From positions 1 to 64,000 of the forward strand of contig JAVZXS010000003.1 in assembly GCA_038886535.1 (NCBI GenBank): DNA of 64,000 nucleotides, read 5' to 3'. The stretch comes from Candidatus Micrarchaeia archaeon (GTDB taxonomy: Archaea > Micrarchaeota > Micrarchaeia > CABMEP01). The position numbers were made by a program, and so were the translations under genes. The notes under the pieces are model-generated. The model was not told where the DNA came from and did not search any database. It saw nothing but the letters and a program-made list of their open reading frames with translations. Positions 15,634 through 25,514 of this stretch are shown here, piece after piece. The stretch's first letter is position 1. Each line of letters begins with the position of its first letter.

Positions 15634-18384
15634 TCATTTGTATCTAAGCAATCCGCCTATTCCTTTGAATCCTGCTAAAAACTGCTTTCCTTCCGGACTG
15701 TCTTCAGGAATCAATTCCACTTCTATTCCATGCTTCTCCGCTTTCTCATAAGCTTCATCAAACAACTCTTCCTTGCTTATTATGTTCTTAATCTTGCTTC
15801 CATTGCTGCACCTGAGTTCTCTTTCTTCTTTTTCTTCTATTTCGCCGTCTATAAATATTTCTTCTTGTCCTGAATCGCATTCTACGATAAGATGGGTAAT
15901 ATCTAATCCTTCAGAAAGCAACAAAGTTCCTAATTTACCAGAGTTCATTGCTTCTATTGTTTCTTTAGGCCCATAAACTGCAAGACCGCCCTTTGCAACT
16001 TCTCCGAAAAATCTTTCAAGAAGCTGCCTTTGCTTCTTTGCCTTCTCCTCAGAAATCAAATCAACTGCTTTTCGTGCAAGCTCTTGAATCCCATAATCGT
16101 CAACATAACCAGTATCAAGGACAGCTAAGATCTGAAATTGATAATTGAAAGGTTTCATTTTCAAAAAGTTTTCTTTCACAGGCCCAGGTCCGCCCACTAT
16201 AACTTTCTTAATTCCAGATGGTATAAGCGTTTCATTCATTGCATCTCCAACTCTCCTATAATAATCTTCTACAAGCTCTTCCACAAAACGTTGATACCTG
16301 GCCGCACTGTTGTGAACTATTATTCCATTGACTACAAAATTTTCAGTCTCGGGTACTGAAAGATCATAAAAATATTCATTTGGGTTTTGTATTTTTTCTA
16401 TCCTAATAATTTTTGGATACACAGCTTCATATTCTAGAGTTCTTTTTAAATATTCTAATATTGCAATGCCATGTTGATATACTTTTTCATCTTGATTTTG
16501 TTTATATTTCATTTCTTTTTTTATCGCATTTTCAAAATAAGGTAAAACTTTTTCCATAAATACTTTTCGAGACATTCGTTTTTTATCTGCAAAAAACATG
16601 TTAATATTTGGGAAGTCTCTTGTGTTTAGACCTAATTCTCTGGCCAAAGCAATTACTTCTTTTCCGCTTACAGATATCTGTCGTATATTATCAGCTCTTT
16701 TTTTCGTTATTCTATTACATTTCTCATCTTTAGAGATAGAGGAGAATCCGATTCTATTTTTAAATATATTTATTGAATCTAAGTCATTTATTTCTAGGAA
16801 CCAAACTCCAATCTGATCTGTTTTTTTCCAATACACCGAACTTATTATTCCAAATCTAAGGAGCGCATATCTTAACTTTTCAATTATATTTCTACTTCGC
16901 ATTCCTATTCCTATCCTGTTTGTGACAAATCCTTCAGCGTCAAAAAGTCCGCTAATAAATGCAGCTAATAGATTATCAGGCAATTTTATGATGTCATTAG
17001 GTATATCCCGTAAATTACTTTTTGCTATTAATTCAGGATATTTATTCTCAATTTCGTCACTTAGCCATTTGCTGTATATTCTTAACTCGTATAAATTTTT
17101 CTTTTTGCATTTTCTAATCTTAGTTTTCAATCCAAACTCAATTTCACATATTTTAGAATAAATTTCCAGATTTTCTTTATCTCGATCATATAAAATTATT
17201 CGGTTATTATCTTTTGTTCCATCTCCAGCTATGTATCCAAAAAGTCGACAAATTCCTTCTGTATAATAAGATGGAATAGCAATTATCTTATCTTTTGGAA
17301 TTAATTTTGTATCGAGCTTATAATATTCAAGAATCTTAGGTAAGATCTTGCTATCTTCCATCTTTCGTTTTCCAAGTTCTAAGCTTGATATTGTTGTTTG
17401 ACTAATTCCTAAATCATCTGCCACTCTTTTCTGAGTTAGATTAAGTTCTTTTCTTCTTTGTCTTAGAATTTCTCTTAATTTGCTATCTAATTTGTAAACT
17501 TCTTTTATTTCAAGCGGTAACTCTGTTTCTTTTCCTTTTATTTCAAAATTAGATATGTGAATAAGTCTATCTCCGACTTTTAATTCATCTACATATTTTT
17601 CCCTGATAGAATTCTCAGTTTCTTTCACAAAGAACAAGTGTTCAGGAGTTGCTATTATTTCTGTTCTAGGATGTTTCGTAATTATTTTATATGCAATATT
17701 AGTTTTTCTTTTCATAACTCTATTGCAAGTTGAGAATTTATATCTTTGTTGAGTAAAATCATAACTAAGCACTCTGTCGCCTTCTCTTACTTGTGATATT
17801 GGTATGATCATTCCATTTTCTAACTGAACCATTCCATCTTCTCTTATGCATGATCCACCTTTTGTTGACTTACTAGGTCCGGTTGTAGTAAGTCGTTTTA
17901 ATATCTTTGTAACATTTCCTTCAAGCACTCCAATTGTTGCTTCCTTTCCATCTATTGTAATCAATCCATACTTTTCCTTAACTTTACCCTGTTCTGCAAG
18001 TGGCTCTAAAATAAATTCAGAATCGCATCTGTAAATACTCACCTGAATAGGAAGCGGCGGCTCAATAGAAAAGAGCTGTATGTCTGTTTTTCCTGGATCC
18101 TTTGATATATTCCCACAGAATATTGCCAATCCTTTGTCTGGGGTTTTCCTAAAGAACTTAAGATAATTGATTATCTTGTCGATTGCATCTTGGACGTTTG
18201 TTCTTGTTGTTTTTGATTTAATGTTTCCTGCCTGCCCATGCTCAGATCGTAATTTATTAACTACCTCAGTTAATGGATATCCAGCAGGAACATATAGACT
18301 TATTAGCTCTGTTCCACTGCCTCTTATCTTTCCAAGCTTGTTTAGCAGTTTCATTAATTCTCTTTTTTTCTTATCCGCAGCCAT
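15634..18384 (-). CDS. prf1: Peptide chain release factor aRF1, intein-containing
   Basis: GTELISLYVP, NIKS, YRCDSEF, C-terminal GFKGIGGLLRY; 402 aa after intein removal. Confidence 0.95.
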   Translation of the reverse strand: MAADKKKRELMKLLNKLGKIRGSGTELISLYVPAGYPLTEVVNKLRSEHGQAGNIKSKTTRTNVQDAIDKIINYLKFFRKTPDKGLAIFCGNISKDPGKTDIQLFSIEPPLPIQVSIYRCDSEFILEPLAEQGKVKEKYGLITIDGKEATIGVLEGNVTKILKRLTTTGPSKSTKGGSCIREDGMVQLENGMIIPISQVREGDRVLSYDFTQQRYKFSTCNRVMKRKTNIAYKIITKHPRTEIIATPEHLFFVKETENSIREKYVDELKVGDRLIHISNFEIKGKETELPLEIKEVYKLDSKLREILRQRRKELNLTQKRVADDLGISQTTISSLELGKRKMEDSKILPKILEYYKLDTKLIPKDKIIAIPSYYTEGICRLFGYIAGDGTKDNNRIILYDRDKENLEIYSKICEIEFGLKTKIRKCKKKNLYELRIYSKWLSDEIENKYPELIAKSNLRDIPNDIIKLPDNLLAAFISGLFDAEGFVTNRIGIGMRSRNIIEKLRYALLRFGIISSVYWKKTDQIGVWFLEINDLDSINIFKNRIGFSSISKDEKCNRITKKRADNIRQISVSGKEVIALARELGLNTRDFPNINMFFADKKRMSRKVFMEKVLPYFENAIKKEMKYKQNQDEKVYQHGIAILEYLKRTLEYEAVYPKIIRIEKIQNPNEYFYDLSVPETENFVVNGIIVHNSAARYQRFVEELVEDYYRRVGDAMNETLIPSGIKKVIVGGPGPVKENFLKMKPFNYQFQILAVLDTGYVDDYGIQELARKAVDLISEEKAKKQRQLLERFFGEVAKGGLAVYGPKETIEAMNSGKLGTLLLSEGLDITHLIVECDSGQEEIFIDGEIEEKEERELRCSNGSKIKNIISKEELFDEAYEKAEKHGIEVELIPEDSPEGKQFLAGFKGIGGLLRYK
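16309..17850 (-). mobile_element. Intein (514 aa) with LAGLIDADG endonuclease and XRE-type HTH
   Basis: Starts CIREDGMVQLENG; block B ATPEHLFF; LFGYIAGDG and FISGLFDAEG; ends YDLSVPETENFVVNGIIVHN, +1 Ser. Confidence 0.95.
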
Positions 18385-18518: not shown

Positions 18519-19823
18519 CTAAATTTTCTTTACAGGCTCGATTCTTTCCTTTCCAAAATAAGGAACAACTGCCTTTGGAATGATTATAGAACCATCTCTA
18601 TCCTGGTGGTTTTCCATTATTGCAACTATCGCCCTTGGTGTTGCAATTGCAGTACTATTTAGAGTGTGAACATATTCTTTTCCTTCAGCTCCAACCTTTC
18701 CATATCTAATATTCAATCTTATGGCTTGGTAAGATGTGCAGTTGCTGCATGAGATCATTTCTCTGTAGGTATTCTGTGCAGGCATCCATGCCTCAAGATC
18801 ATATTTCTTTGCAGCTACAATTCCAATCTCACCAGTACATATGTTGACTATTCTGTAAGGAACCTCAATCTTTTGGAATATCTCTTCAGCATTTCTTATT
18901 AACTCTTCATGAATATTCCAAGAATCCTCAGGTTTGCAAAAGACAAACTGTTCTATCTTGTTGAATTGATGCACTCTAAATATTCCTTTCGTGTCTTTTC
19001 CATGCGCCCCAGCTTCTTTTCTAAAACATGCACTAATTCCAACATACTTAAGCGGCAACCTTTCTTCTTCAATTATTTCATTCATATGCATTGCCGCTAT
19101 TGGATGTTCAGAAGTAGAAATTAGATAGAGGTCTTCTCCTTCTATCTTGTAAAGAGCTTCCTCGAAAGTGCCAAGGTCAGTTACGCCTTCATAAGGCTTT
19201 CTCTTAAGCATGAAAGGCGGATAAATAGGAGTGAAGCCTTTCTTGACCATAAGGTCCATTACCATTCTTTGTAATGCCATATCTAAGAGCACAAGGTCAT
19301 TCTTTAGATAATAAAATCTGGCTCCCGAAACCTCTGCAGCTTTTTCTATATTTGCTCCGTCTATAACTGGCAATAGATCAACATGGCTTTTTAATTCAAA
19401 CCCATAGTCTTCTTTTGTTTTTGGCTTGCCCCATGTTCTTACAACCTGATTATCATTTTCATCTTTTCCAAAAGGAACAGACTCATGCAATATATTTGGA
19501 AGGCGCATCAAATAAAATCGTACCTTTTCTTGCAGCTCTTCCATTTTTGCTTCTGCTTGCTTTATTTTTTCAGGAATTTCAGATGCTTTTTTCTTATATT
19601 CTTCAGCTTTTGCTTTATCTCCTTTTTTCATTGCGTCTGCGATCTGTCTTGTTACTTGGTTTCTTTCAGATCTAAGTTTTTCAACCTCTGCAAGTAATTC
19701 CCTATATTGTTTATCTTTTTCTATCAGATCTTCAAGCCACTGGATCTTTTCTAGATCTTGTCTTTTTTCAAGATCTGCTCTTACAATTTCAGGATTCTTT
19801 CTTATAAGTTTGATATCTAGCAT
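18519..19823 (-). CDS. serS: Seryl-tRNA synthetase
   Basis: MLDIKLIR, TSEHP, FRKEAG..GIFRVHQF, SCSNCT, HTLNST. Confidence 0.97.
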   Translation of the reverse strand: MLDIKLIRKNPEIVRADLEKRQDLEKIQWLEDLIEKDKQYRELLAEVEKLRSERNQVTRQIADAMKKGDKAKAEEYKKKASEIPEKIKQAEAKMEELQEKVRFYLMRLPNILHESVPFGKDENDNQVVRTWGKPKTKEDYGFELKSHVDLLPVIDGANIEKAAEVSGARFYYLKNDLVLLDMALQRMVMDLMVKKGFTPIYPPFMLKRKPYEGVTDLGTFEEALYKIEGEDLYLISTSEHPIAAMHMNEIIEEERLPLKYVGISACFRKEAGAHGKDTKGIFRVHQFNKIEQFVFCKPEDSWNIHEELIRNAEEIFQKIEVPYRIVNICTGEIGIVAAKKYDLEAWMPAQNTYREMISCSNCTSYQAIRLNIRYGKVGAEGKEYVHTLNSTAIATPRAIVAIMENHQDRDGSIIIPKAVVPYFGKERIEPVKKI

Positions 19824-20120
19824 ACATGACACCTTTATTCTTATTATTGTTAAAACACTCTCTAAATGTTATTAGAATCTAAGTTTTTTTAACCTTTGTG
19901 AGCTAAGACCCAATTACATGCTTGCGGTTTTTCTGTATTTTAATAAAGATAATTAATTAGTATTAATTTATTTTTAAATTGCTATATTCACTTCAATCAT
20001 GGAAAAGATGTACTCATTTACTTTATTATCTATTTTTGCATCATTATTTCTAATGTAATGTCATCCATATAAAAATAAAATGGATTAAGTTAGCTTATTT
20101 TATAGTTTTTATCTCATTGT

Positions 20121-23876: not shown

Positions 23877-25514
23877 TTAGTATTCTCCTCCGCCCATTCC
23901 ACCTGTGCCTCCAGATCCTCCAGATGAAATTGGCTTTGGTTTTGCACTTATCATATCGCTAATTCTTAGCAACATTTCTGCAGCCTCACTTGCAGACATT
24001 ATTGCCTGTTCCTTAACCTTTGCAGGTTCGATTACACCAAGTTTCTCCATGTTGTCTATTTTTCCATCATAGACATTAACTCCATATACGAGGCCATCCT
24101 TGTTATTGTGCTTTGACCTCAATGATACAAGTGTATCTATTGCATCCATTCCTGCACTCTCTGCAAGTGTTCTTGGAATTACTTCAAGTGCATCTGCAAA
24201 TGCAAGTATTGCAAGCTGCTCCCTTCCTCCTATCTTATTTGCATATTCTCTGAGGTCCTTTGCCAACTCGATTTCTGTTGCTCCTCCACCAAATACATAT
24301 TTTCCTTCCTCAATAGCAGAGGAAACTGCACCTATGGCATCTTTAATTGCCCTTTCTCCCTCGTTGACAACATGGTCTGTTGATGCTCTTACTAGTATTG
24401 TTACTGATTTAGGATCTTTGCACTTTTCAACAAATACCATTGCCTCTCCACCAATCTTTCTTTCCTCTATAAGTCCAGCATGTCCAAGATCTTTTGGTGA
24501 AAGGTCATTCAGGATTGTAACTATTCTTGCTCCTGTTGCTCTTGCAAGCTTCTCCATATCGCTTCTCTTTACTCTTCTTACTGCCACAATTCCTTTCTTT
24601 GCAAGATAGTGTTGTGCAACATCATCTATTCCTTTTTGACAGAATACAACGTTCGCTCCGCTCTTCTCTATTTTTTCAACCATTTCCTTAAGCATTTTTT
24701 CTTCTTGCTCAAGGAATGCAGTCAACTGAGAAGGATCAGTTATTTCGATCTTCGCATCTGTTTCAGTTTTCTCAATTTCTAGAGAGGTGTCAAGCAATGC
24801 GATTTTTGCATTCTCAACTTTCTTCGGCATTGCGGGATGCACTATCTCTTTATCAATTAAAACTCCATTTATAAGTGTGGTGTCATCAATTGACCCGCCT
24901 GCCTTTTTCTCTATTTTTATTAAATCTTGATCAATCACAAGTTTGCCATCCTTCTGTTCTGCAACTTGTGTAACTGCATCTACTACAATCTTTGCAAGGT
25001 GGTCTTTTGATTCACCCACTCCTACTGATTTTGATCCCATTGAAATAGAAGCTATATTGTAAAGTACTTTTGTATCTTTGATGGTTACTGGCTTTGATAT
25101 CTCTTTTACTCTTGCTATTGCTCTTGTTGCAGCAAGCTTGTAACCTCTAAGTATTGTAGATGAATGAATATCTTTGTCAAGTAAATCTTCTGCCCCTTTA
25201 AGTAATTCACCAGCTAACACAACAGAGGTAGTGGTTCCATCACCAACTTCCTTATCTTGTGTTTTTGCAACCTCTACAAGAATCTTAGCTGCAGGATGGT
25301 CTGTATTCATTTCAGTCAAAATCGTTGCTCCGTCATTAGTTATTACGATGTCTCCGAGCTCCGATACCAGCATTACATCGCTTCCCCTAGGACCAAGTGT
25401 TTTCTTTACTATTTCTCCAACTGCTCTTCCAACTACAATCATAATTCTCTGTGCATCTCTTCCTACAGTTCTTGAACTTCCCTCTGGAAGTATCATATTT
25501 TGTGAATTCGCCAT
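23877..25514 (-). CDS. ths: Thermosome (group II chaperonin) subunit
   Basis: [23 protein letters not shown] tail. Confidence 0.97.

Follow-up and report, generated by a model that had tools for sequence, protein, structure and literature searches.

The window analysed here is a stretch of 64,000 nucleotides from a Candidatus Micrarchaeia archaeon (GenBank assembly GCA_038886535.1, contig JAVZXS010000003.1, positions 1 to 64,000), and our subject is its gene for the class-I translation release factor aRF1. The aRF1 precursor gene lies on the minus strand at 15634..18384, as an open reading frame (ORF) of 916 codons plus a stop with one intein inside. Translation and comparison with intein-less relatives define the N-extein as residues 1-178 (17851..18384, minus), ending in KSTKGGS. 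The C-extein, read from the translation, comprises residues 693-916 (15637..16308, minus) and begins SAARYQRF, with Ser at +1. Pfam matches and the junctions place a class-1 intein of 514 amino acids (1542 nucleotides) at residues 179-692 (16309..17850, minus). At the place of the catalytic Gly-Gly-Gln (GGQ) motif, the codons GGT GGA TCA (17851..17859, minus) specify GGS. The loop codons on the minus strand are AAA (17862-17860), GGT (17859-17857), GGA (17856-17854) and TCA (17853-17851), followed directly by TGC for Cys1 of the intein (17850-17848), and the minus-strand translation of 17836-17880 is GPSKSTKGGSCIRED. Because the C-terminal junction reads GIIVHN followed by SAARYQR, the spliced loop is predicted to be KSTKGGSSAARY, which is identical to the loop of the intein-less genes in four genus-mates (L007-L010). 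Both stop-codon recognition motifs are intact in the translation: NIKS at residues 54-57 (18214..18225, minus) and YxCxxxF from Y118 to F124, within SIYRCDSEF (18013..18033, minus). An earlier note, made from the letters of the window, had read the loop as K-G-G-S followed by the intein Cys and the two recognition motifs as intact; its codon reading was correct in every detail, and the motifs stand as described.

In the precursor, the three Pfam domains of the family (eRF1_1, eRF1_2 and eRF1_3) all scored over their cut-offs, and Intein_splicing, LAGLIDADG_3 and HTH_19 were also found. On the equivalog model TIGR03676 (cut-off 234.7 bits), the two exteins of the window aRF1 scored 218.6 bits (N part) and 172.7 bits (C-extein, model positions 174-402), and the intein-less aRF1 of a genus-mate (L008) scored 415.7 bits. 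The GGS aRF1 aligned with the solved aRF1 4af1_A over 3-401 (E 3.4e-69), with Ser sitting on Gln, gap-free. On the Pelota model it reached 52.7 bits against a cut-off of 177.65. The order to which the organism belongs is represented by 10 genomes in the collection, all of them metagenome-assembled genomes (MAGs), 54-94% complete, and GGS takes the place of the textbook Gly-Gly-Gln in all nine that have an aRF1 gene. We filed the protein as a variant aRF1, because it is an orthologue by descent yet lacks the textbook GGQ motif.

The serine is supported by independent sequence data. Logan contigs from two possible source runs showed zero differences at the site. In a third sample of the same study, a contig of 382 nucleotides carried the same intein and GGS junction, and departed from the window at 7 other positions, including a synonymous change in the intein Cys codon. 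In a different study (run X5), a 1742-nucleotide contig connects 16309 with 17873 through 21 other letters, exactly 1542 nucleotides fewer than in the window, and its intein-less junction reads K-S-T-K-G-G-S. All runs compared are labelled hot-spring metagenomes, and window stretches without X3 or X5 coverage are uninformative. A read check had been proposed in the earlier note; the contigs give neither CAA nor CAG at the site. Its view that a single miscall was unlikely is likewise borne out, both by the two substitutions that separate TCA from CAA and by the contigs of two studies that carry GGS. Sequencing or assembly error, a pseudogene and codon recoding can be regarded as refuted: relatives use five different Ser codons, the assemblies of the two studies are concordant, the frames are intact in all copies, and TCA also encodes Ser57 of the NIKS motif in the same gene, a residue conserved as Ser across all 84 homologues aligned.

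We examined how far the serine extends among relatives by searching 41 related genomes with the N-extein, 40 of which gave a match. KGGSS was present in all eight intein-less aRF1 genes of the order, from genus-mates (G001, G003, G004, G005 and G006), two other genera of the family (G007 and G008) and the sister family, represented by one genome (G009); the tenth genome of the order, G002 (54% complete), had no aRF1 match. In the other families of the class the motif was KGGQ at each of the 21 loci, and in two genomes of other families (G034 and G039) an intein occupies the same site after GGQ, so that Gln is followed directly by Cys. A search at the DNA level for K-G-G-(Ser-like)-(Ser-like)-A-x-R-Y had matches in 7 of 401 genomes of the class, all within the window's family; the class-wide counts include two unpublished genomes (G085 and G297), without which the denominators are 399 and the numerators are unaffected. 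At the loop position, serine was encoded by TCA, TCC, TCG, AGC and AGT. Since both Ser codon boxes are used, serine has been under long-term selection.

Among the 120 best homologues of a genus-mate aRF1 in a collection of 5.8 billion proteins, 34 were GGS and 86 GGQ, and their organisms, where named, were Micrarchaeia or Micrarchaeota. The loci listed in a contig search with the GGS alignment (at least 80) included 79 GGQ, one GGA and no GGS. Phylogenetic trees, in one of the two of which the motif column was left out, resolved the GGS sequences into two fully supported groups. Group A, which includes the window's order (25 rows in FastTree, 19 in IQ-TREE), was sister to the GGQ sequences of family f6, and group B (7 and 5 rows, respectively) was sister to a GGQ clade. 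Constraining A and B to stand together was 19.5 log-likelihood units worse and was not rejected by the approximately unbiased (AU) test (p-AU 0.244; 41 rows, LG+G4); a single gain of serine and two gains are both compatible with the AU test.

A family-level search with TIGR03676 revealed one full-length aRF1 in each order genome that has the gene, eight over the cut-off and the window copy as two extein halves; further matches were Pelota-like, at about 40 bits. Neither a GGQ paralogue, which the earlier note had suggested looking for, nor a second full-length aRF1 was found in the ten order genomes. Two partial copies were seen. G006 has a duplicate aRF1 cut by a contig end, which is also GGS. 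In G008, a second aRF1 N-terminus (L188, G008:C46:25500-27016) comprises residues 2-82 only, at a contig end; it is 63% identical to the window's and may derive from a second strain or a contaminant. The incompleteness of the genomes (54-94%) and the G008 fragment at its contig end would favour a canonical GGQ aRF1 that is present in these organisms and missing from every assembly. We consider such a hidden copy highly implausible, given that nine of the ten order genomes have aRF1, that every full-length copy is GGS and none GGQ, and that other Micrarchaeia genomes likewise have a single aRF1. Together, the order-wide conservation and the single copy per genome sustain the earlier note's proposal of a naturally occurring GGS release factor of class I.

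In genome G000, that of the window, the second eRF1-fold gene is Pelota (TIGR00111, 257 bits), and no bacterial RF-1 domain was found. The stop codons of its open frames with 300 codons or more are TAA (263), TGA (105) and TAG (59), indicating that all three stops need to be read. One might imagine that the GGS factor reads these stops but hydrolyses poorly or not at all, so that the peptide in this symbiont-like lineage would be freed in another way, for example by ribosome splitting and then a peptidyl-tRNA hydrolase, or by a factor supplied by a host. DPANN genomes are reduced and host-dependent, which counts in favour of such a scheme. So does the use of Gln loss as the accepted signature of inactive eRF1-fold proteins such as Dom34/Pelota and most baeRF-1 families, in the available text of PMC6514570. 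We nevertheless regard a dead hydrolase as unlikely. NIKS, YxCxxxF, both glycines and indeed the whole of KGGSSAARY are strictly conserved with varied codons, a pattern not to be expected of a loop that had lost its role in catalysis. G000 contains no alternative release-factor domain, and on NF052289 the protein reached 39.3 bits against a cut-off of 320, which places it well outside the Balon/Rv2629 family.

The Gln of GGQ is methylated in all three domains, and it is called universally conserved in the accessible portions of PMC6514570, PMC5799190 and PMC6144793. The methylase is represented by TIGR00537, which is the HemK2/MTQ2 family by its NCBIfam description. This model was over its cut-off in 26 of the 41 related genomes, comprising 26 of 31 from other families and none of the 10 from the order. 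When the order genomes were searched with a profile of seven Mtq2 proteins from Micrarchaeia, the matches were all partial and reached 33.5 bits at most. The six best methylase matches of G000 were an unassigned class-I methylase (top partial match CpaM, 74.7 bits), Pcm (224 bits), a weak Pcm-like protein (39 bits), a protein matching adenine DNA-methylase models (42 bits), Trm1 (338 bits) and KsgA (206 bits), none of them a member of the HemK/Mtq2 family. The best score in G000 for the Trm112 model PF03966 was 11.6 bits against a cut-off of 22, which is weak evidence either way as the model is only 40 positions long. The earlier note had proposed both a search for Mtq2 and that the factor is independent of Gln methylation. 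The search found no Mtq2 over the cut-off in the order; with a sole aRF1 that lacks the Gln and no Mtq2/HemK2 detected in any of the ten order genomes, termination here would be independent of that methylation.

A further loop without Gln was found in a Micrarchaeota MAG (JAJZMY010000037.1), in which L109:1501-2697 encodes KGGASAGRY, that is, GGA with the codon GCA; its close relatives L123 and L124 are GGQ. In the L109 genome aRF1 is single-copy and no protein passes the Mtq2 cut-off, and of four GGQ relatives two have Mtq2 and two lack it. Thus, among the genomes scored for Mtq2, none that lacks the loop Gln has the methylase (the order and L109). Loss of Gln and absence of Mtq2 appear to form a consistent pattern across two or three independent events, with no demonstrated correlation.

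Substitutions of the Gln are not confined to Micrarchaeia. In Aenigmatarchaeota-type aRF1s (P0124 and P0137-P0256), GGM stands in place of GGQ. The N-extein of one GGM protein was searched against shorter proteins, and the best 120 matches were read: 111 were intein-less GGM, 4 were GGM with an intein, 2 were GGW, 2 were GGF, 1 was too short and none was GGQ. Their named sources were Aenigmatarchaeota, bar one partial protein labelled Bathyarchaeota. We also took the best 150 cluster representatives at 50% identity for a GGS query (P0257-P0404), 146 of which cover the motif. The third loop residue was Q in 123, W in 11, M in 5, F in 3, S in 2 and A in 2, so that Gln is absent in 23; an intein directly follows the motif in 57 of the 146. 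Some of the short cluster entries, of about 355 amino acids, may be other paralogues. It is an evenly balanced proposition that the "universal" Gln has been replaced repeatedly in the sole release factor of DPANN archaea, by Ser in two Micrarchaeia clades, by Ala in one Micrarchaeia genome and, among lineages of the Aenigmatarchaeota type and others, by Met, Trp or Phe, and that the replacement in Micrarchaeia accompanies the absence of Mtq2. Copy number and Mtq2 were scored in the window's order, in related Micrarchaeia families and in L109 with its relatives. On this reading the hydrophobic residues, and Met in particular, could be gene-encoded mimics of N5-methyl-glutamine.

The intein of the window inserts exactly between the third loop residue and the following Ser. 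Its Intein_splicing domain scored 90.4 bits in Pfam, and the splicing signals comprise C179, a TPEH block (ATPEHLF) and VHN692 followed by S693, i.e. a terminal His-Asn with Ser at +1; the TPEH block is of the TxxH type. It also contains an XRE-type helix-turn-helix (HTH) at residues 305-360 (17305..17472, minus; HTH_19 44 bits, HTH_3 40.6 bits) and two LAGLIDADG homing-endonuclease stretches, the best of which lies at residues 473-546 (16747..16968, minus; LAGLIDADG_3 72.3 bits). From these intact motifs, the intein is predicted to be active in splicing and homing. The presence/absence polymorphism is precise: the intein is absent in five genus-mates and in the run X5 contig, and the window genome is the only carrier among 6 genus genomes with an aRF1 gene. 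N-extein identity to the intein-less genus-mates was 98-99% for four and 81% for the fifth. Because these near-identical genus-mates are GGS without an intein, the intein arrived recently, long after the serine. The nearest relatives of the intein (53% identity) reside in two other GGS aRF1s, and remoter inteins at the same aRF1 site follow GGM, GGW or GGQ, each with Cys as the next residue. The codons flanking the insertion differ synonymously, AAA GGT GGA TCA in the window (17851-17862) vs AAG GGG GGG TCC in intein-less G001, G005 and G006 (compared with L148-L152); these differences could be a homing co-conversion tract, or merely drift.

These observations bear on the cause that the earlier note had offered for the serine, namely a preference of the intein for Ser at -1 or escape from its endonuclease. 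Such an origin would be a historical cause, compatible with an active factor. In its favour, DPANN aRF1 genes very often carry an intein at this position, and the codon beside the cut site is 2-3 bases from CAR. In addition, Gln is absent in 13 of 57 motif-covering cluster representatives with an intein vs 10 of 89 without, but this contrast is biased, because cluster representatives favour long members. Against it, all eight intein-less alleles of the order are already GGS, and an intein is present in only one of the six genus genomes with the gene, even though four genus-mates are 98-99% identical in the N-extein. Inteins at this site follow Q, S, M, W or F across lineages, so no -1 residue preference is visible. 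GGS alleles have themselves been invaded (P0011, P0026, P0121 and P0122) and are thus not immune to homing. Comparison of relatives with and without the intein, which the earlier note had also recommended, therefore does not bear out either form of its proposal, and we judge it decidedly improbable that the Q-to-S change was driven by the intein.

On the ribosome side, we aligned full-length large-subunit (LSU) rRNAs from 8 GGS and 19 GGQ genomes. The GGQ genomes share 883 invariant columns; 823 of these were unchanged in every GGS genome, and 8 were fixed to a different base in all 8 GGS genomes. By base identity, with positions counted in the alignment and not mapped to E. coli or standard numbering, the 8 fixed differences resemble four compensated pairs (C>T/G>A twice, G>C/C>G and A>G/T>C). 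They probably represent ordinary helix covariation, with no sign of compensation in the peptidyl-transferase centre. Separately, several LSU rRNA genes exceed the 2987-position model: that of G000 is 3189 nucleotides long (L166, G000:C1:437-3625), and those of G007, G014, G030 and G039 are 4.4-4.9 kb (L181, L182, L184 and L180). This suggests insertions or introns in the overlong 23S genes of Micrarchaeia.

The neighbours of the aRF1 gene are ordinary. The ORF immediately upstream (18519-19832, minus) resembles seryl-tRNA synthetase, a name assigned by eye. Elsewhere in the window, an 18-bit TIGR03676 match at 24570-24857 proved spurious, as it lies in a thermosome subunit (Cpn60_TCP1, 609.7 bits; 23877-25514, minus).

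The GGS loop is conserved, the gene is single-copy, the methylase is absent and every one of the three stops is in use. We propose that the sole class-I release factor of this hot-spring Micrarchaeia (DPANN) archaeon probably works with a GGS loop, with neither Gln nor Gln methylation. Splicing would yield an aRF1 of 402 amino acids with the loop K-G-G-S-S-A-A-R-Y, in which serine is the native residue of the lineage, fixed and kept by selection across the order. According to the accessible text of PMC6742477 and PMC5799190, the two glycines of the motif take glycine-only conformations, the backbone amide of Gln catalyses hydrolysis (PMC6742477), and the Gln side chain has a packing role (PMC5799190), stabilised by methylation. 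A GGS loop would retain both glycines and the main-chain NH of the third position, the catalytic group according to that structural work, and because it keeps them we infer an active factor that acts through this backbone amide. What would be given up is the Gln side chain, with its packing and water positioning normally tuned by N5-methylation, and a smaller hydroxyl-bearing side chain would take its place. Such a factor would trigger peptidyl-tRNA hydrolysis without the methylase, possibly more slowly or less selectively. For Gln substitutions in E. coli RF1, Shaw and Green in 2007 are said to have found a modest rate loss and a relaxed choice of nucleophile, and in-vivo studies are said to have found such mutants non-functional.

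Several points weigh against this proposal. Mora in 2003 and Song in 2000 reportedly found that replacing the Gln is lethal, or fails to complement, in E. coli and yeast. The order genomes are all MAGs at the 54-94% completeness given above, the G008 aRF1 fragment (residues 2-82) ends before the motif region, and the reading of activity comes from sequence. Absence of Mtq2 is not specific to GGS: it is missing as well from five Micrarchaeia genomes of 95-98% completeness whose aRF1 is a normal GGQ factor (G014, G016, G017, G019 and G034). Loss of Mtq2 is therefore patchy in the class, and methylase loss may precede Gln loss. The link between GGS and methylase loss reflects one or two evolutionary events. 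Finally, the portions available of PMC6514570 and PMC5799190 call GGQ universally conserved and take Gln loss to mark inactive paralogues.

The broad release-factor survey PMC6514570, in its accessible sections, treats Gln as conserved in classical aeRF-1, and those sections make no mention of a natural aRF1 without Gln. A full-text literature search, with supplements outside its scope, likewise found no mention of a natural non-Gln aRF1 or of an aRF1 intein. We found no paper describing a GGS release factor; by descent the protein is an aRF1 orthologue, and its catalytic motif departs from the textbook one. In Haloferax volcanii, Mtq2 methylates aRF1, which the authors extend to all archaea (PMC6144793, in the part available). 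The present result would correct this published generalisation, by which every archaeon has Mtq2 and methylation of aRF1 is general among them. No motif other than GGQ is common to the unrelated bacterial and archaeo-eukaryotic release factors. Whole archaeal lineages with Ser (or Met, Trp, Phe or Ala) in their sole release factor and without the methylase would offer a natural experiment on a long-standing question, namely what the Gln side chain and its methylation contribute. If the proposal is true, neither is essential for cellular translation termination, and annotation rules that equate an eRF1-fold protein lacking Gln with an inactive one can be wrong.

Compared with canonical aRF1 (TIGR03676; 4af1_A), the window protein shares the three domains, NIKS, YxCxxxF, full-length alignment, single copy and three stops in use, and differs in having an order-wide Ser as the third loop residue, with an intein right after it. 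Inteins after the GGQ of other DPANN aRF1s have the same insertion site and the same Hint plus LAGLIDADG architecture, whereas that of the window has Ser instead of Gln at -1 and, in addition, an HTH domain. Laboratory GGQ mutants (H. volcanii aRF1 GGA; eRF1(AAQ) in PDB 6hcf and 5lzv) also combine an altered loop with an otherwise normal factor; they are engineered and often inactive, in contrast to GGS, which is natural and selected and belongs to the sole release factor of its organism. Mtq2-Trm112 does not methylate the GGA mutant of H. volcanii (PMC6144793, available text). Methylation by Mtq2-Trm112 (HemK2) acts on the same loop and the same residue position, whereas the order has no substrate Gln and no detectable Mtq2 in any of its 10 genomes. 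Pelota/Dom34 and the bacterial Balon/baeRF-1 proteins likewise have an eRF1 fold without the catalytic Gln, but they lack a NIKS-type domain or belong to other families, whereas the window protein is an aRF1 orthologue encoded alongside a separate Pelota gene.

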